Assembly (NCBI GenBank): GCA_963788195.1
Contig: CAWBGA010000013.1
Span: 316,227-380,226, forward strand
Reading direction: 5' to 3'
DNA: 64,000 nucleotides
DNA from: Nitrospirota bacterium
GTDB taxonomy: Bacteria; Nitrospirota; Nitrospiria; Nitrospirales; NS-4
Part shown: positions 31,166 through 62,400 of the stretch, piece by piece
Position numbering within the stretch: the stretch's first letter is position 1
How the letters are laid out: each line of letters opens with the position of its first letter
Translations under genes and position numbers: made by a program
The notes under the pieces: model-generated
Databases searched by the model: none
Told to the model about the DNA's origin: nothing
What the model saw: the letters and a program-made list of their open reading frames with translations, nothing else

Positions 31166-31243
31166 GTCCCCATCGTCTAGTCTGGCCTAGGACGCGGCCC
31201 TTTCAAGGCTGCAACACGGGTTCAAATCCCGTTGGGGACACCA
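31166..31243 (+). tRNA. tRNA-Glu (anticodon UUC), CCA encoded
   Basis: Acceptor GTCCCCA/TGGGGAC. Anticodon stem CGGCC/GGCTG with loop CTTTCAA. T-arm CGGGTTCAAATCCCG. Discriminator A plus CCA. Very similar to the E. coli tRNA-Glu sequence as I recall it. Confidence 0.9.
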
Positions 31244-31509: not shown

Positions 31510-32097
31510 ATGTCCAGTCGTATCACAGGTCAAAAAGGTTTTACGTTGATTGAGTTGATGATCGTCGTGGCGATCATCGGGATCCTGGCGGCGATTGCCA
31601 TCCCGAACTTCGTGCAGTATCAGTTGAAAGCGAAGACGTCTGAGGCCAAGACGAACGTCCAGGCCATCAGGACCGGCATGATAGCGATATCGGCCGAGCG
31701 GAGCTGTTCTCCTTCAATAGCCGCGGCCCCGTTGGCGATGCCGGTTGGGGGCGCGGTCACTGCTTGGCCTCCCTTTGCGGTGGCTACGACGGCTGGTCTT
31801 TGCGCGCCGCCTCCTGCTGTAGGTGTGGTCTATGCCGGTCAGTATGGCGATATTGGGTTCCTGCCTGCAGGCTCTGTCCGGTACTGGTATAACGTCGCAT
31901 CCTTCCCGGGTGCTGCGACTGCCACACCTGGTGCCAATGGCTGCGCCAATCCTACGACCCCCGCGGCGGGTGCTGGAGCGGTGGGTAATCTTGGCTGGTT
32001 GGTCACGGCTGTCGGTGATCTGGATGGTGTGGGCGTTGCTGGCTACCAAGTGGGAGACACCGGCGGATTCCAAGACTGCAATCCTGGTCAGTTCTAA
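31510..32097 (+). CDS. pilA: Type IVa pilin (PilA-like), intact
   Basis: Prepilin leader MSSRITGQKG / FTLIELMIVVAIIGILAAIAIP (Gly-1, Phe+1, Glu+5). Four Cys, including a C-terminal pair (GCANP...DCNPGQF). Confidence 0.9.
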   Translation: MSSRITGQKGFTLIELMIVVAIIGILAAIAIPNFVQYQLKAKTSEAKTNVQAIRTGMIAISAERSCSPSIAAAPLAMPVGGAVTAWPPFAVATTAGLCAPPPAVGVVYAGQYGDIGFLPAGSVRYWYNVASFPGAATATPGANGCANPTTPAAGAGAVGNLGWLVTAVGDLDGVGVAGYQVGDTGGFQDCNPGQF

Positions 32098-32373
32098 GTA
32101 ACATTGAGCGCTCCCCGCCAGGGACTGCGAGTCTTTGGCCGGGCTTTAAATCCCCATCACCCCTGCCAAACGCCAAAGAGCCTGCTTTTAGGAATTTCCT
32201 AGAATATGGTTCCAGTGCCCAAATAGTGCCTATCACCAGTGTTTCCATATAGCCTTCAGACTCGCTCTCATGCGTATTGGTTGGCCCCTTAGTTGTTGTA
32301 TTCATCTTGTTCCTGCACGGTTGTGACACTCAGTGTCATTCGTAGTCTATACCTGTAAAGTCCCTCGTAGGCG

Positions 32374-32415
32374 CTTTCAAGGCTGCAACACGGGTTCAAA
32401 TCCCGTTGGGGACAC
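32374..32415 (+). repeat. 42-nt exact direct repeat of the 3' half of tRNA-Glu (partner 31200..31241)
   Basis: CTTTCAAGGCTGCAACACGGGTTCAAATCCCGTTGGGGACAC is identical at 31200-31241 and 32374-32415. It runs from the anticodon loop to the first C of CCA. Confidence 0.95.
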
Positions 32416-47573: not shown

Positions 47574-47703
47574 AGACATGTCCTGGCACCGAGGGCCACG
47601 GGAAAAGGACGCGTCCCGACGCGTCCGGGGAGGGTGGGTGGAGTGGCGGGTGCCCGGGAAAAGAGGCTGTCTTGGCAGCCTCGGGGCTGGGCGGGTGTAG
47701 TAT

Positions 47704-49854: not shown

Positions 49855-50280
49855 ATGACGTGGGGAATGCATACCAAGGACAGCCCCGGCAAGGGCCGGG
49901 TGCTTGTGGTTGACGATGAGGAAAATATTCGTAAACTGGTCCGTATGTGCCTGACGAAAGCCGGCTATGATGTCGAAGAAGCGGAAAACGGGGAAGAGGG
50001 CGAAAAGATCATTCGAGCGAACGATAATCCGCTTATGGTCGATGTCATTCTCTGCGATATCCGGATGCCCAAGGTGAATGGCATTGAAGCGATTGCCTTC
50101 TTTCAAAAGGAGTTCCCTTCTGTTCCCATCGTTGTTATCACCGGATTTCCTGACACGGAGATGGCCGTGGGTTTGATGAAACAGGGAGTGTTGGATTACG
50201 TTCCGAAACCCATTCTCAATGAGAAGCTCTTGGACGTGGTCGATAAAGCTATGGCGAAGCGGACGTCATTAAAAGGCTAA
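49855..50280 (+). CDS. CheY-like receiver-only response regulator
   Basis: RVLVVDDEENIRKLV...VILCDIRMPKVNGIE...VPIVVITGF...DYVPKP. Confidence 0.85.
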   Translation: MTWGMHTKDSPGKGRVLVVDDEENIRKLVRMCLTKAGYDVEEAENGEEGEKIIRANDNPLMVDVILCDIRMPKVNGIEAIAFFQKEFPSVPIVVITGFPDTEMAVGLMKQGVLDYVPKPILNEKLLDVVDKAMAKRTSLKG

Positions 50281-51776: not shown

Positions 51777-53054
51777 ATGGCTGATTCGGACGGCGCCCAG
51801 GATGAGATAAGCCGCCTCAGGGACGAGTTGGAGGCAGTCCGCCGCCTGTGTCAGATACTGTTCCAAAAGACGAAGCTCGATGATCTCGTAGAAGCCGCGT
51901 TGCGGAGCGCCCTTCAGGAGGTGGACGCGGAAGCGGGCTCCGTGCTGCTCGCGGATGCAGATTCCAAGCAGCTCATCTTCCACTACTCCGTAGGAGCGAC
52001 GGTGCCGCGCGGAACGGCCATTCCGTGGGACAAGGGCATCGCCGGCAGCGTCTTTCAATCAGGAGAGCCGGCAATTATCGCCGACGTCAAGAAAACGAAA
52101 CAGCATTTCGGCGAGGTCAAGACCGGGTTCGTCACGCGTGACATGATCACGCTTCCGCTGAAACAATGGGAAGGCGATCCAATCGGAGTCATGAACGTTC
52201 TCAACAAGCGAAACGGGACCTTGGATACAAAGGATGTTCGTTTGCTCACGATCATTTCCGCGTTTACTGCAATCGCCATTCAACAGGCGCGCCTGTTCGA
52301 GGAAGCCAAGCTGGCAGAAGTGGTACACCGGCTCGGCGATCTGGGTCACGACTTAAAAAACCTCCTGACACCGATTGTGATGGGAAGCCAGATCCTCAAA
52401 GATGAGCTTGCGGAGGTCTTCGAAATGCTTGACGTCGTTGAGGACGGAAAAGCCGACAAGCATCGCGAAATTTGCGACGACGTGATCCGCATGCTCCAGG
52501 ACGGCGCTGAGCGGACGCGAGACCGTGTTCGAGAAATTGCCGACTGTGTCAAGGGGCTCAGCAGTTTGCCGAACTTTGCCTCCTGCAATGTCATGATGGT
52601 CGCGGACAGCGTCGTCAAGACCCTTCGGGTGGTGGCTGAGGAAAGAGGGGTCACGCTGAACGTGAAAGAAACTGCAACGTTGCCTCTAATCCTCGCAGAC
52701 GAACGCCGCCTGTTCAACGCTCTCTATAATTTGGTGAACAACGCGATCCCCGAAGTCTCTGCCGGCGGCTCAATCACGGTGAGTGGAAAATTGGAACCGG
52801 ACGGTAAACACATACACCTCACTGTGGCGGACACCGGTCGAGGCATGTCCTGTGAAGTCCGCGAAAGCCTGTTTTCCGCGCGAGCCATCAGCCGCAAGGC
52901 CGGCGGAACGGGGCTCGGCACGAAGATTGTGAAGGACGTCATCGACGCCCACGCAGGTACGATCTGGGTCGAAAGTAAGGAGGGCGCCGGCACCACCTTC
53001 CATGTGTGCCTTCCTATCTCCTGTCTTAGTGCCATTACACCCAACCCGCCCTGA
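51777..53054 (+). CDS. Cytoplasmic GAF-domain sensor histidine kinase (paralogue 1 of 3)
   Basis: GAF (AEAGSVLLADADSKQLIFHYSVG...GIAGSVFQSGEPAII...RDMITLPLKQWEGDPIGVMNVLNK). H-box-like GDLGHDLKNLL. HATPase GGTGLGTKIVKDVIDAHAGTIWVES. Confidence 0.85.
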   Translation: MADSDGAQDEISRLRDELEAVRRLCQILFQKTKLDDLVEAALRSALQEVDAEAGSVLLADADSKQLIFHYSVGATVPRGTAIPWDKGIAGSVFQSGEPAIIADVKKTKQHFGEVKTGFVTRDMITLPLKQWEGDPIGVMNVLNKRNGTLDTKDVRLLTIISAFTAIAIQQARLFEEAKLAEVVHRLGDLGHDLKNLLTPIVMGSQILKDELAEVFEMLDVVEDGKADKHREICDDVIRMLQDGAERTRDRVREIADCVKGLSSLPNFASCNVMMVADSVVKTLRVVAEERGVTLNVKETATLPLILADERRLFNALYNLVNNAIPEVSAGGSITVSGKLEPDGKHIHLTVADTGRGMSCEVRESLFSARAISRKAGGTGLGTKIVKDVIDAHAGTIWVESKEGAGTTFHVCLPISCLSAITPNPP

Positions 53055-53575
53055 AGCTTGCCAAGACAAGCTTCTTTGCCCCTGGCACCCAACCCGCCCT
53101 GAAGCTTGCCAAGACAAGCTTCTTTGCCCCTGGCACCCGGCACAGACCCGTTCCCCTGAAGCTCGCCAACCTGACAAGCTTCTTTGCCCCTGGCACCTGA
53201 CATCGCCCTGAGCTTCCCCGACGGGACAGACCTCTTTTCCCCTGAGCACCCCGAACCTGAACAGGCTCTTCTTCCCATGTTGCCCGAAATCTTATTTCAC
53301 CCACCCTTCCCCCGGCATGCCGGGGCATCGCCGACCGCGCCAAGACAGCGCTTTTTGCCCGTGGCACAATTCCTTTTCCCATTGCACCCACCCAGCCCTG
53401 AAATCTGCCGAGACAGATTCTTTTCGCCCATGGCACCCCAGGCTTTTGAAATCCCGCGGGACAGATTTCTTTTCCCCATTGCACCCCCCAGCCCTGAAAT
53501 CCTATTTCACCCACCCGCCCCGGCGCTGCCAAGACAGCGCCTTGTCCCGTGGGACAGATTTCTTTCCCCTTAGCG
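53038..53575 (+). repeat. Array A: head-to-tail array of CACCC-initiated units bearing a conserved-core hairpin
   Basis: Two identical 48-mers at 53038-53085 and 53086-53133, then diverged units of 60, 53, 51, 67, 20, 49, 48, 26 and 45 nt. Hairpins include GAAGCTTG-CCAAGA-CAAGCTTC (53053-53074), GAAATCTG-CCGAGA-CAGATTC (53400-53420) and GGCGCTG-CCAAGA-CAGCGCC (53522-53541). Confidence 0.9.
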
Positions 53576-53729
53576 CCGGCTGCGAAGGGGTCCGAATAAA
53601 TACACTTCGTATCTAAACAGATAGTCTGGTTCTTTTCTCGCCGCGGAATAGTCACAATTTATCAACCTCTTAACACCGGCCCACATTTTGCCTAGAACCA
53701 TCATAGGGACACCCGGCAAGGAGGCCACT

Positions 53730-55082
53730 ATGTACAATATGGAACCCGATATAGCAGGCAACTTGATGACGGGATTTGCAAGCATCGGAACAGGTGATAC
53801 TGAGGGAACCCACTCGACTGACGGATCTGCCCACAGCCTCTTCCAGCGGCTTCGCCAGCGCGAGCGTGAGTTGGACGCCGCACGCCTATTGAGTGAGGTA
53901 CTGTTTGAGCAAACCCGCCTTGACGAATTAGTCGAGCAAGCCCTACGGACAGCCCTTGATGTGGTCCAGGCTGAGGCCGGTTCCGTGCTGTTGGCCGATC
54001 CGGAGTTGCGCCAATTGGTCTTCCATCATTCGATTGGAAAGAGTCCCGTCCCTGCCGGCACAAGAATTTCGTGGGATTACGGTATTGCGGGGGCTGTCTT
54101 TCATTCGGCAAAGGCGGAAATTATCCCCGATGTCAAGCGTGACGGCCGTCATTTTCCCGGGATTGACTTGGAGGTGGGATATACGACGCGCGATATGATT
54201 ACGTTGCCTCTTAAGCGATGGGGAGGCAAACCCATCGGCGTGCTGAATGTCCTGAACAAGCGTAACCACCGCTTCACGGAGGATGATCTTGCCATCCTGA
54301 CTATCTTATCCGCGCTGACGTCAACCGCGATCGAGCAGACGCGGTTAGCGGAAGAGGCCAAGCGTGGGGAGATGTTATGTCTGCTGGGCGACATTGGTCA
54401 CGACATGAAAAACATGCTCGATCCAGTCCTCATGGGACTAGGGTTACTGCAAGACGGAATTGACGAGATGTGTGGCCTCTCGCAGCAAGAGCAGAAACAG
54501 GCGACGCGCGACCAATGCAACCATGTGATTGAGATCATTCGCGGTTCTTCCCGCAGGCTCCAGGAGCGCGTTCATCAGATGGCCGAGTGCGTGAAAGGGA
54601 TAAGCTCAGAACCCCAATTCGCTCCGTGCCGACTATCATCTATCGTGGAAGGGGTAATGACCACACTAGGTATGTTGGCCGCACAGAACAACATCGTCCT
54701 TCGCGCCGATGGCCTAGAGGACTTGCCGCCTATCATCGGCGACGAGCGCCGGCTGTACAATGCATTATATAACCTGGTTAATAATGCCATCCCGGAAGTT
54801 AAGAGCGGTGGTTCCATTACGGTGCGCGGGCGCGCAGCTGCAGCAAGAATCGTCCTTTCGGTCAGCGACACGGGAAGGGGCATGCCGCCGGAGGTTCGGG
54901 ACAGTCTTTTTACGGGTTGCGCCATCAGCCGTAAGCCCGGAGGCATTGGGCTGGGCACGAGAATCGTAAAGGATGCTGTGGAAGCGCATGGCGGTACGAT
55001 TACGGTCGAGAGCGCGATCGGGGTCGGCACCACGTTTGAAATCCGTTTACCGATCTTCCCTCCGCAATCGAAGACGCCGTAG
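53730..55082 (+). CDS. Cytoplasmic GAF-domain sensor histidine kinase (paralogue 2 of 3)
   Basis: Same architecture as paralogue 1 (AEAGSVLLADPELRQLVFHHSIG, GDIGHDMKNML, GGIGLGTRIVKDAVEAHGGTITVES). An AAGGAGG Shine-Dalgarno lies 6 nt before ATG 53730. Track start is TTG 53688. Confidence 0.85.
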   Translation: MYNMEPDIAGNLMTGFASIGTGDTEGTHSTDGSAHSLFQRLRQRERELDAARLLSEVLFEQTRLDELVEQALRTALDVVQAEAGSVLLADPELRQLVFHHSIGKSPVPAGTRISWDYGIAGAVFHSAKAEIIPDVKRDGRHFPGIDLEVGYTTRDMITLPLKRWGGKPIGVLNVLNKRNHRFTEDDLAILTILSALTSTAIEQTRLAEEAKRGEMLCLLGDIGHDMKNMLDPVLMGLGLLQDGIDEMCGLSQQEQKQATRDQCNHVIEIIRGSSRRLQERVHQMAECVKGISSEPQFAPCRLSSIVEGVMTTLGMLAAQNNIVLRADGLEDLPPIIGDERRLYNALYNLVNNAIPEVKSGGSITVRGRAAAARIVLSVSDTGRGMPPEVRDSLFTGCAISRKPGGIGLGTRIVKDAVEAHGGTITVESAIGVGTTFEIRLPIFPPQSKTP

Positions 55083-58833: not shown

Positions 58834-59400
58834 CACCCGGCTGTGTTTGGGAGGGACAGTTTCTTCATACGGAGCCCGAGCTCTCCCACGAGCCAAACGG
58901 GTATACTAGTCTAGACGTTTTTCAATTGAATAGGGAACATTTTATCCTTGCAAAAACCCTTAGTTGGGAGCACCGTAGTGAAGCTCGTCCTATGGCTGCT
59001 TTGGTTATATCGGAAGGTACCACCCAGTCCTATTGCACCCGCCCGCCAAGCCGAGCTTGCTCGACCACTACACCCGGCCCACCCCAGAACTCGCCATTGC
59101 ACCCTCCCCAGCCTGGAGACCCCTTGTACAGGAAGGCAAAGGGTGCCTCGGACAAACTCCTTTGCCCTATTACACCCGCCCGCCCTGGAGTTTCATTTCA
59201 CCCGCCCACCCCAAGCCTGCCAAGACAGGCTTTTGTCCCGTGGGACAAACTCCTTTGCCCCTGGACGAGTTCGTCTCGCCCATGGGCCTGATGATTATTT
59301 TGAGGCCGCCGGGGATAGTTTCTCTGCTCTTTGTTTTGCCTTTTGCACCCGCCCACCCCGGCGCTGCCAGGACAGCGCCTTGTCCCGTGGCACCCGCCGC
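58834..59400 (+). repeat. Array B: second array of the same repeat family, same orientation
   Basis: A degenerate unit at 58834-58869, then a dense run 59021-59400. It includes 45-nt units 59199-59243 (hairpin AAGCCTG-CCAAGA-CAGGCTT, 59213-59232) and 59346-59390 (GGCGCTG-CCAGGA-CAGCGCC, 59360-59379). Confidence 0.85.
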
Positions 59401-59486
59401 GCCGCGGGCCTGCCGGGTCTGAGCCGTGGCCCCATGAGACAATCCAAAAACACAGGCGGCCTTCGATCTAAGAGGGGAGCCGAAGC

Positions 59487-62400
59487 GTGCTGGTGAGCCG
59501 TAAAACCTTCCTCGGAAACACGCTCCATTTTCTCTCAAGCTTTGGGAGCAATGGCGGGGGACCATCGTACGCAGGTGACGATTTACCGCCTCTGAGGTCG
59601 GAACTTTTCAGCGCGGACCAAATGGAGCAGCACGGCAAGACCCTGGCAGGCCAGCACACATTGAGTACGCAGAGCGTACGTGACGAACTGCTGCCGCGAT
59701 TGGCCGACAACGAACGGGTTCTGCTTCGAGTGCACAACCTTCTGGCAGAGGCCGTCAAGGCGAATCGCCGGATTACGCCAGCAGGAGAATGGCTACTGGA
59801 TAATTTCTATCTGATTGAAGAGCAGATCCGGATGGCTAAAAGACATCTGCCTAAGGTGTATAGCCGGGAACTTCCCCGTCTGCTCAATGGGCCGTCGGCC
59901 GGGCTTCCCCGCGTGTATGACATTGCCCTTGAGACAATCTCCCATGGCGACGGAAGAGTCGATCCAGAGAGTCTCGGCAGTGTCGTGGCCGCGTACCAGA
60001 CCGTCAGCCTCCTGAAGTTAGGCGAATTGTGGGCTATCCCTATCATGCTACGTCTCGCCCTGATCGAGAATCTTCGCCGCGCGGGCGCTCGCATTGCCGC
60101 AAACAGAATCGACCGAAATCTTGCCGACCACTGGGCGGACCAGATGTTGGAAGTCGCGGCGAAGGATGCGAAGAGTTTGATCCTCGTGATTGCAGACATG
60201 GCCCGTTCGAACCCCCCCATGGGCAGTTCGTTTGTCGCGGAGTTTGCCCGTCGGTTACAAGGACAGAGCCCGGCTTTATCCTTGCCGCTAACGTGGATCG
60301 AGCAGCAATTGTCCGAGTCTGGATTGACGATTGATCTGCTGGTGCAGTCGGAAAATCAACAACAGGCCGCGGACCAGGTCTCCATCAGTAACAGCATCGG
60401 CAGTCTCCGATTTTTGGGAGCGATGGATTGGCGCGAGTTTGTCGAGACCATGAGCGTGGTCGAACGTACCTTGCGTCAGGATATGGGCGGCGTCTACGGC
60501 AAGATGGATTTTGCCACGCGAGATCAATACCGTCATGTCGTAGAGAAGATTGCCAAAAACGCTCGGTTATCCGAAGCCGAGGTCGCGCACAAGGCGATTC
60601 AACTGGCGAACGACGCCGTTTTAAAAGGTGGGCGTGCCAACCGTGCGGCCCACGTCGGGTTCTATCTAATTGATAAGGGTTTGGAACAGCTTGAACTGGC
60701 GCTGCAACCCCGGCGCCCTAGGGTCGATGTCCTTCGCAGTATAGCCGCGCGCTCTCCCCTTTCTATTTATCTAGGCGGCATCCTGCTTCTGACTGCGATC
60801 GTTGCCGGGTGGTTTGTCGCAGAGGCGCATGCCGGAGGGGTATCCGGCTGGTTGCTCCTGCTGGTCGGCGTCGTGTCCGGTGTATGCGCCAGTCATCTAG
60901 CCGTCGCGTTGGTGAATTGGGTGGCAACGTTAGTCGTGACACCGGATCACTTGCCACGAATGAATTTATCACAAGGGATTCCGGCTGAGTTACGCACGCT
61001 CGTCGTGGTCCCGACGATGCTCCTGAGCGCCCAGGATATCGAGCACCAGGTAGAGGCGCTTGAAGTCAGATTCCTGGCGAATCGGGACGAAAATCTTCAC
61101 TTCGGCCTGCTGACGGATTTTCGAGATGCGGACGAGGAGACGCTCCCCGAGGACGAACAGCTTTTGCAGTTGGCCCAAAACAGAATTGAAGAGCTGAACG
61201 AAAAGTATAAAGGAGCAAAGGCGGACACGTTTTTTCTTTTTCATCGACCGCGGCGCTGGAACGCTCAAGAGGAGATGTGGATGGGGTACGAGCGTAAGCG
61301 CGGAAAGCTGGGTGATTTAAATTCGTTTTTGCGAGGCGGCTCTCAAGACCGTTTTGCCCGTATCGTCGGCAAGACGGACGTGTTATCGAACGTCAAATAT
61401 GTCATCACCCTTGATACGGATACGCAGCTGCCACGCGATGCCGCCCAGCAGTTCGTGGGCGCGATGGCCCATCCTCTGAATCGTCCGGAATATGACGAGG
61501 TCCAGCAGCGCGTGACTGAGGGATACGGCATCCTGCAGCCACGCGTGGCCGTAAGCCTCCCGAGCAAGGACCGGTCTCGGTATGCGCGGCTATGCGGAAG
61601 CGAGCCGGGCGTCGATCCTTATACCCGTGAGGTTTCGGACGTCTATCAGGACGTGTTCCGTGAAGGCTCGTTCATCGGCAAGGGGATTTACGACGTTGAT
61701 GCATTCGAGCGGGCCCTCAAAGCACGCTTTCCAGAGAATCGCATTCTCAGCCATGATCTGCTGGAAGGGTGTTATGCGCGGGCGGGGCTCTTAAGCGATG
61801 TGCAGTTGTATGAGGAGTATCCGTCGCGTTACAGCACCGACATCAACCGCCGCCGTCGTTGGATTCATGGAGACTGGCAGCTTGCGCCGTGGTTGCTTCC
61901 GCGAATCCCGGCAGTTGGGGGGCGGAGCCAGCGAAACTTACTCTCGGGCCTATCTCAATGGAAGATCTTTGATAATCTGAGGCGCAGTCTTGTGCCTCCC
62001 GCCTTGACCCTTCTGTTGATCTTAGCGTGGACCTTCTTGTCCCCGGTTTGGTTTTGGACCCTGGCGGTGCTCGGCATCCTGCTGATGCCTTCTCTGATAG
62101 CCTCTATTCTGGACATACTTCGGAAGCCCCAGGATGTCCTCATGAGTCACCATATGGCTACAGCGCTCAGTTCGGCCGGCCGTCACGGTGCTCAGGCGCT
62201 GTTCATGCTGGTGTGTCTGCCCTATGAGGCGGCCGTCAGCCTGAATGCGATTGTGCGTACTGCCTGGCGCCTACTGATCTCACAGAAACGACTTCTCGAA
62301 TGGACTTTGTCGGGTCAGAAAGAACGCGATAGCCGCACCGACATCATCGCTTTTGGCCGGATGATGTCGGTCGCGCCGCTGACCGCCTCCGCTGTGGCCA

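Follow-up and report, generated by a model that had tools for sequence, protein, structure and literature searches.

A head-to-tail hairpin array between two sensor kinase genes is probably a local accumulation of short palindromic repeats from a Nitrospirales-wide family

The 64-kb stretch of Nitrospirota DNA analysed here (henceforth referred to as the window) contains two paralogous sensor kinase genes on the same strand, and the spacer between them carries an array of short hairpin-forming repeats (henceforth ‘array B’). An earlier description made from the DNA letters alone (henceforth the ‘sequence-only reading’) had drawn attention to this array and had offered three roles for it: a series of small-RNA or terminator modules, a stack of binding sites for a PilR-type activator, or a lineage-specific intergenic repeat family. 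The locus is made up of the following features:

51777-53054, + strand: GAF-HATPase histidine kinase gene (Pfam; the start agrees with the public gene call P0121)
53038-53575, + strand: array B, 538 nt
53576-53729, + strand: unique spacer outside the repeat, with conserved ATACA..GTATCTAAACAGATAG, a sigma-54-like GG-N10-GC element at 53676-53692 and then the ribosome-binding site of the next kinase gene
53730-55082, + strand: the next, paralogous kinase gene, GAF-HATPase

Array B starts 17 nt upstream of the end of the first kinase open reading frame (ORF; stop codon TGA at 53052-53054), such that the last six codons of this gene (ITPNPP) and its stop codon come from the first repeat unit, and it ends 154 nt before the ATG of the next kinase gene at 53730. 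It is composed of ~10-12 head-to-tail units that are initiated by CACCC; with both CACCC and CACCT taken as initiators, a parse yields 10 blocks of 26-87 nt, and the count is ~12 if the composite units are split into their parts. Tandem Repeats Finder agrees with this layout, as it reports a period of 48 nt at 53038-53197 (3.1 copies, score 205) and at 53358-53502 (3.0 copies). Splitting array B at CACCC gives these blocks:

53038-53085, + strand: 48 nt
53086-53133, + strand: 48 nt
53134-53193, + strand: 60 nt
53194-53246, + strand: 53 nt
53247-53297, + strand: 51 nt
53298-53384, + strand: 87 nt
53385-53433, + strand: 49 nt
53434-53481, + strand: 48 nt
53482-53575, + strand: 94 nt, composite

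The first two blocks are identical 48-mers, a match that was reproduced by no shuffle of the window. The pair (53038-53133, + strand) reads CACCCAACCCGCCCT GAAGCTTG CCAAGA CAAGCTTC TTTGCCCCTGG, each of its units folds with -13.9 kcal/mol (z -3.7), and it is best read as a recent tandem duplication. Thus the sequence-only reading had been accurate about the head-to-tail CACCC units, the bounds of the array and the identity of the first two units, and the complementary arm pairs that it had quoted are indeed present (GAAGCTTG/CAAGCTTC, GAAATCTG/CAGATTC and GGCGCTG/CAGCGCC). It had also placed a TGCC(A/G)AGACA core in most units, which overstates the case: the exact core is found in 4 units, once more with 1 mismatch and once in degenerate form, i.e. 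in about half of them, and the rest of the units contain only the 3' half (GGGACAGA) or other modules. Many units in the arrays are degenerate when parsed in this way, and a family model matched array B with nhmmer at 53042-53085, 53090-53133, 53339-53363, 53402-53425 and 53506-53551. The ORFs that span array B score as non-coding under a model of codon usage that had been built from the long ORFs in related genomes. Separately, the stop-free frames of the arrays in the window give rise to three spurious ORFs of 180-206 amino acids (53035-53655 and 52724-53278 on the - strand, 58948-59496 on the + strand); their codon-usage scores are all negative, and a length-based gene caller would annotate them.

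The last block of array B reveals how units are combined. In the composite at 53482-53575 (+ strand), the arms of a host unit (GAAATC at 53496-53501 and GATTTC at 53558-53563) enclose a complete 45-nt unit (53508-53552; stem GGCGCTG/CAGCGCC, loop CCAAGA) which sits just 5' of the host GACA, and the predicted fold of the composite shows nested helices. Where the tail of the inner unit is joined to the host GACA, a 14-nt near-perfect palindrome, TGTCCC-GT-GGGACA, is formed (53543-53556), which lies ~150 nt upstream of the sigma-54-like GG-N10-GC.

The repeat family is not confined to array B. It occupies three loci in the window, one of them inverted, with at least 20 units in 64 kb. The copies outside array B are:

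47575-47697, - strand: locus A, between two + strand pilus-operon genes and antisense within the operon (nhmmer E 3.6e-11), 5.4 kb upstream of array B; canonical 45-nt unit at 47653-47697 with stem GAGGCTG/CAGCCTC
59021-59400, + strand: array C, again built head-to-tail, in the spacer of a divergent gene pair (nhmmer E 1.4e-10 and 6.8e-06)
59173-59264: composite in array C with outer arms GGAGTTT/AAACTCC and inner stem AAGCCTG/CAGGCTT
59346-59390: canonical 45-nt unit in array C
Further modules in array C: a CCCCTTG...CAAGGGG hairpin and GGCCTGATGATTATTT...GGCCGCCGGG

Hence the view that all units point the same way is correct within array B and does not hold for the family, as locus A is inverted. 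The three canonical 45-nt units of the window (47653-47697, 53508-53552 and 59346-59390) share the form CACCC-R-CCC-R-CCCC, a 7-bp stem, CCAAGA, the complementary 7 bases and TTKTCCCGTGG, and the unit hairpins in the window are stable (z -3.2 to -3.7). In array C we also observed a second type of module, the hairpin CCCCTTG-N-CAAGGGG (59100-59172; also at L026, L007 and L073 among the loci from other genomes described below), which is located inside host arms (GGAG.../...CTCC, 5' of GGACA), in the position where the CCAAGA-loop unit sits elsewhere; the host loop therefore takes more than one kind of insert.

To define the distribution of the family, a species-representative genome collection was scanned with the strict pattern CCCCNNNNCTGCCARGACAGNNNNYTT, in which four positions are left open in either arm of the stem. 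The pattern was found at 86 loci, and 78 of these have the full family flanks. Nearly all of the 78 are labelled Nitrospira, Nitrospiraceae, Nitrospirales or Nitrospirota; the exceptions are one contig from a soil metagenome-assembled genome (MAG) labelled ‘Chloroflexi’ and one unlabelled contig from the isolate sfNOB_N1, whose name suggests a nitrite oxidiser. The 8 matches in other phyla lack the flanks, and only 0-2 of their 4 stem positions are complementary. Up to 13 contigs of one MAG contain the family, and searches of viral contigs, plasmids and phages detected none of it. The window therefore most likely derives from a Nitrospira-like genome. The closest relatives in the sample are the MAG ‘Nitrospirales bacterium La5-N1’, which contains similar head-to-tail arrays, and metagenome contigs with an 89%-identical kinase. 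When the window was compared with the scanned loci, the only alignable DNA consisted of the repeats, a tRNA and one weak match of 66.7% identity (49889-50165 to L057), which indicates that the repeat is far better conserved than its surroundings. As to the one contig with a Chloroflexi label (‘Chloroflexi bacterium CF_162’, L046, VBJS01000133.1), it carries a perfect Nitrospirales-type composite and is probably misbinned, since several Nitrospirae MAGs were obtained from the soil sample series to which it belongs.

Alignment of the copies defines a family unit of 42-48 nt with a CACCC-N-CCC-N-CCCC leader, a 7-8 bp stem, a CCAAGA loop and a TTTKCCCNTGG tail, in which the 3' part of the loop and the first stem base form the GACA. 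The loop and the C-tracts are conserved and the stem sequence is free: 45 of 80 copies show complete Watson-Crick pairing at the four stem positions left unconstrained, among them 9 different perfect stems, and the pairing is 0.74 compared to 0.43 when the arms are shuffled among distinct copies. The leader C-tracts are kept in 76-77 of 79 copies, and the single bases between them vary freely. Conservation of the loop is not an artefact of the search pattern, since among 67 copies defined by their flanks 61 have the strict core and 5 more have a CCAAGA or CCGAGA loop on another closing stem (e.g. AGGCGCG-CCAAGA-CGCGCC), giving 66 of 67 with the loop. Composites, in which a unit lies within the loop of another unit just 5' of the host GA(CA), are frequent. 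We aligned 27 of them and counted pairs under a three-helix model: changes on both sides were seen in 6 of 7 pairs of the outer helix and in 4 of 4 free pairs of the inner helix, and the middle helix (CCCRC/GYGGG) showed no covariation in these 27. The overall covariation score was 0.197 compared to 0.127 in shuffled alignments (reached by 0 of 500 shuffles) and 0.036-0.105 with slid partners. The conserved core with covarying stems, which the sequence-only reading had noted from the units of array B, is thus borne out by a larger and independent sample (80 copies and 27 composites), and the covariation exceeds that of shuffles. Overall, a fixed loop, free and covarying stems and self-nesting together are an unusually clean signature of putative structure-specific DNA recognition. 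In some Nitrospira other than the one studied here, the 45-nt unit also forms the apex of a long hairpin of 175-300 nt that resembles a miniature inverted-repeat transposable element (MITE). The ends of this long form are inverted (GCAGGATG..CATCCTGC / GCAGGATGNTCAAAAAG...CTTTTTCAACATCCTGC), and internal modules of ~66 nt may be present; it folds with -82.7 kcal/mol (z -3.1) and occurs at L028 (6020-6210), L020, L025, L057, L066, L084, L038 and L058, with multiple copies in one MAG. It is absent from the window, and no consistent target duplication accompanies it in the other genomes.

Having described the family, we compared the syntenic kinase-kinase spacer in four relatives (L171, L087, L172 and L173). 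In L172 and L173, where the kinase is 78% identical and the synteny is the same, the spacer is 168 nt long and contains no units. L171 (kinase 89% identical) has an array of ~170 nt, the first unit of which is a single copy of the 48-mer of the window (46 of 48 positions identical), and L087 (89%) has a different array of ~240 nt that shares only its last composite with the window and includes a module found in the 59-kb array of the window. The array of the window measures 538 nt and has the 48-mer in duplicate. A single starting point in the 3' end of the kinase gene, ..CATT(A/G)|CACCC, is common to all three arrays, and the kinase tail differs accordingly, reading ITPAKQSLLDPKA* in L087 and ending without repeat sequence in L172. 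Downstream of the array, ATACA..GTATCTAAACAGATAG together with the sigma-54-like element is kept in all four relatives whether or not an array is present, the array-free L172 and L173 included. This conserved downstream sequence, rather than the array, is the likely control region of the next kinase gene. The element in question, CCGGCCCACATTTTGCC (53676-53692), is of the sigma-54 -24/-12 type and lies ~40 nt upstream of the second GAF kinase gene.

Several copies are found within strongly coding ORFs, and at such sites Pfam matches exceed the length of the profile by about the size of the insert (Radical_SAM, TRAM_2, APH and alpha/beta-hydrolase domains). The gene-borne units are in these ORFs:

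L054, 6153-7733: miaB
L081, 1738-3204: gene with an internal unit
L074, 3241-4425: gene with an internal unit
L014, 1400-2176: gene with an internal unit

The units in the radical-SAM loop of MiaB and in the TRAM_2, APH and alpha/beta-hydrolase domains are in frame and add 14-30 residues, e.g. REGARPTGKEPVLAGSGWVGEIKPGAGGC. Against the solved MiaB structure 7mjv, the L054 protein aligns in two parts (52-266 with 18-228 and 290-520 with 227-455), so that the alignment splits at chain residues 227/228 with ~24 extra residues. Many Nitrospira have no insert in the corresponding miaB loop (L169). In L167 the loop holds a simple unit of 42 nt and in L054 a composite of 87 nt; L168 retains a remnant of 15 nt, and L170 carries a larger mosaic. 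All of these versions are in frame. The miaB genes of L054 and L167 are 98.9% identical at the DNA level, and they differ by exactly one 45-nt unit in the host loop. The sequence-only reading had inferred from unit lengths that no reading frame is conserved; this is true only in part, as the canonical units measure 42, 45, 48 and 60 nt. Because these canonical units are multiples of three and mostly without stop codons, copies survive in frame in genes and at gene ends.

These comparisons establish, with unusually direct evidence of recent turnover of single units, that units are gained and lost over short evolutionary time scales, that they accumulate where a unit is already present, either head-to-tail at the TGG|CACCC junction or in the loop of a resident hairpin 5' of GA(CA), and that arrays also change by tandem duplication and deletion. 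A search of the full-text literature found no description of the family, which is apparently undescribed though ordinary in kind. What sets it apart is that its arrays run head-to-tail, that units nest in one another's loops, that the loop is conserved and the stems are free, and that it is spread across the order.

The family shares features with several known repeat systems. Like the REP and BIME elements of Enterobacteria and Pseudomonas, which are associated with RAYT transposases, it consists of short imperfect palindromes that are mostly extragenic, dispersed in both orientations, assembled into mosaic arrays and specific in sequence to a lineage, and recognition presumably involves a hairpin together with a short conserved motif beside it; size and dispersal agree as well (42-48-nt units, a 7-8 bp stem, 78 loci). 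Unlike REPs, in which the stems are largely conserved within a class, the loop is conserved here and the stems are free; the Nitrospirales units also nest in each other's loops and lack a 5' motif of the GTAG type, and the sampled DNA (~1 Mb of loci together with the window) yielded no RAYT. The boxA-boxB(n)-boxC elements of Streptococcus pneumoniae offer another parallel, being intergenic, strain-variable and modular hairpin mosaics in which one module recurs head-to-tail in varying copy number. This likeness to BOX is one of architecture only, as a sequence relationship is not expected across phyla, and the Nitrospirales arrays lack the fixed A...C frame, whereas BOX is not known to self-nest or to sit in frame in genes. 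In-frame copies in conserved protein genes, tolerated as extra surface peptide segments, are a trait shared with the palindromic RPE repeats of Rickettsia, and orthologues with and without the insert were found here too; RPEs differ in length (~100-150 nt), in the absence of tandem arrays, in lineage and in sequence. The long form with its inverted ends resembles ERIC and the Correia/NEMIS elements of Neisseria, but the short unit differs from such MITEs, in that a 5-bp CCCAC/GTGGG helix is all it has by way of terminal inverted repeats and no target duplication is visible. The multicopy nucleotide sequences of Geobacter comprise numerous lineage-specific intergenic families, some of them palindromic and with several copies per spacer, and one of these families sits in genes on both strands without frameshifts (PMC2700814, PMC2996986). 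The organisation of the Nitrospirales family is similar and the phylum differs; a Geobacter origin and membership in a Geobacter family were both rejected, as the motif is absent from the supplementary alignments of both papers (PMC2700814, PMC2996986) and the genome scan leads to Nitrospirales.

Other candidate identities were tried and discarded. As the sequence-only reading had also concluded, array B is not a CRISPR, since its units abut directly and there are no unique spacers. It corresponds to no known Rfam family: on the whole window only a tRNA passes, in the array region the best E value is at least 1.8 with bit scores far under the gathering thresholds even at permissive settings, and the long form has no match. 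There are no ORFs between the units and no GTTRRRY ends as in integron attC sites (an integrase was not searched for). A DNA-uptake sequence was rejected because copies are confined to arrays and not spread over coding DNA, CsrA-type GGA loops because GGA occurs in a minority CCAGGA variant only, and sigma-54 promoters at the TGGCAC unit junctions because the -12 TTGC is missing at the right spacing.

Taken together, we consider it probable that in array B short, non-coding, palindromic repeats of a family found throughout Nitrospirales have piled up locally, that they are of the general kind of REP/BIME, BOX and RPE, and that they have no dedicated regulatory role at this locus. The sequence-only reading, which had set an ordinary dispersed REP/MITE-like element against its own interpretation, is therefore only partly supported: copies are dispersed in both orientations, which is REP/MITE-type behaviour, while its structural reading (conserved loop and flanks, covarying stems) holds, and the lineage-specific intergenic repeat family is the only one of its three proposed roles to survive. 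How such a pile-up might arise is suggested by the anatomy of the unit. The stems may covary while the loop and flanks stay fixed because the structure recognised by a copying or recombining activity would be an extruded single-stranded DNA hairpin, with the conserved loop and the C-tract feet as its landmarks. The agent could be an enzyme acting in trans, for example a single-strand transposase of the HUH/RAYT type, or else ectopic gene conversion among the copies, and any effect of array B on the 3' end of the upstream kinase mRNA would be a by-product. Several observations weigh against this account. Arrays here are head-to-tail, whereas BIME clusters alternate inverted copies. No HUH...Y..NP motif was found in six-frame translations of ~1 Mb of loci plus the window, and no transposase family is among the 25 most frequent Pfam families listed for 150 neighbour genes; the missing mobiliser is weak evidence, because the mobilising gene of such repeats is usually present only once. 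Four insertions into genes show no visible duplication of the target site. At the junction that distinguishes L054 from L167, seven host bases (GCGCCAA) are also replaced by TTTATTT, so that the difference is not a clean insertion and is accounted for by ectopic conversion among scattered copies no less well than by transposition. The number of copies in each genome comes from sampling only. Finally, there is a weak excess of copies antisense to both flanking genes (24 compared to 13, and 11 compared to 2 for the composite type), which, although it comes from crude gene calls and partly from orthologous, non-independent loci, hints at some strand-linked constraint, and the array may have a secondary effect at the RNA level.

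A dedicated RNA element, in which the hairpins and their T-rich tails would act as a weak terminator stack, as 3'-end stabilisers in the kinase transcript or as a source of small RNAs, would explain why the units of array B are co-oriented with both kinase genes and begin at a stop codon, why the hairpins are stable and their stems covary, and why a T-rich run follows each stem; E. coli REPs are a precedent, as they protect upstream mRNA against 3' exonucleases. We nevertheless regard it as quite improbable. Relative to the flanking genes, copies lie antisense as often as sense (-- 24, ++ 13, +- 12, -+ 9), including the 47.6-kb copy, which is antisense within an operon, and some lie within ORFs. 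A consensus terminator scan called no unit hairpin, with counts equal to those of shuffles, and a promoter scan found no promoter-like sites above chance; units of 45-48 nt are also too short for a promoter of their own. Stem mismatches of the G:T type, tolerated in + strand RNA, are not in excess over A:C, which would be tolerated on the other strand (10 compared to 11), no Rfam family matches, and the array is missing or different in close relatives that keep the downstream promoter region. On these grounds the small-RNA or terminator role of the sequence-only reading is unsupported, and the turnover in relatives that conserve the downstream promoter leaves its PilR role unsupported as well. 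The latter, a stack of sites for a PilR-like sigma-54 activator of the downstream kinase gene recognised through GACAG or TGTCCC-GT-GGGACA, could draw on the location of the palindrome upstream of the conserved GG-N10-GC and on the conservation of the last composite between the window and L087. It is extremely improbable in our estimation: the palindrome is simply the junction of an inner-unit tail and the host GACA, recurs at 59234-59247 and is present in composites across the order, genic copies included; L171 keeps the promoter with different terminal units, and L172 and L173 keep it without any; and the 150 genes adjoining copies, which fall into 182 Pfam families, show no enrichment of any of them, regulators included.

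The remaining alternatives concern the DNA itself. The complementary stems could be a mutational by-product, arising from intrastrand template switching in quasi-palindromes or from gene conversion in decaying selfish DNA that has no structural requirement. The lack of strand asymmetry among wobble pairs, the resemblance of the L054/L167 difference to a conversion tract and the many degenerate units would all be expected, but neutral decay would not leave the loop and C-tract flanks near-invariant across an order-level clade while the stems change, nor have nine distinct perfect stems share one loop, and we judge this very improbable. In another alternative, the C3-N-C3-N-C4 ... C3 tracts, which are G-tracts on the other strand, might fold into an i-motif or G-quadruplex in which the hairpin serves as a long loop, and so act on replication or transcription. 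The constancy of the C-tracts beside free spacers, the fourth CCC after the hairpin and three canonical G-quadruplex motifs at unit junctions invite this idea; the window as a whole holds 4 such motifs compared to 4.7 in shuffles, so that an enrichment of canonical G-quadruplexes was rejected, and the C-tracts could equally be a protein recognition site; we judge a non-B DNA role highly improbable. A further proposal is that the 45-nt unit is actively mobile, in which case it would be among the smallest such units known, with a machinery that reads the CCAAGA-loop hairpin and its C-tract feet and integrates copies into the same loop. Self-nesting would then follow because new copies integrate into the unit's own loop, and a newly gained unit would separate the two 98.9%-identical miaB genes. 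We consider this rather unlikely; if it were true, Nitrospirales would harbour a new hairpin-loop-targeting system of single-strand DNA transposition or recombination together with its cognate enzyme.

Two further features of the window lie outside the repeat family. Four consecutive sensor kinase genes lie between 51777 and 58790 (GAF-HATPase, GAF-HATPase, PAS-GAF-HisKA-HATPase and, in inverted orientation, GAF-HATPase), and synteny with L171 and L172 covers the first three; the two GAF-HATPase genes have no recognisable HisKA domain in Pfam. At 31166-31243 lies a tRNA-Glu(TTC) gene, the last 46 nt of which are repeated with 98% identity at 32370-32415, 1174 nt downstream, and the two repeats flank a single type-IV-pilin-like gene (31510-32097) with an N-terminal GFTLIELMIVVAIIG motif. 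The repeat pair resembles the att duplication that would be left when a very small cassette integrates at the tRNA gene.

Members of the genus Nitrospira are the main nitrite oxidisers and the complete ammonia oxidisers of soils, waters and treatment plants, and their genomes are known mostly as fragmented MAGs. With array B probably a pile-up of a Nitrospirales repeat family, the consequences for these genomes are practical as well as biological: the family breaks assemblies and creates spurious ORFs (three of more than 150 amino acids across the arrays of the window), alters the ends of genes and inserts additional peptide segments into conserved enzymes, MiaB among them. It also provides a fast-evolving marker for strain typing and a taxonomic flag for misbinned contigs, and the signature of structure recognition in its units may serve as a handle for finding the enzyme responsible.

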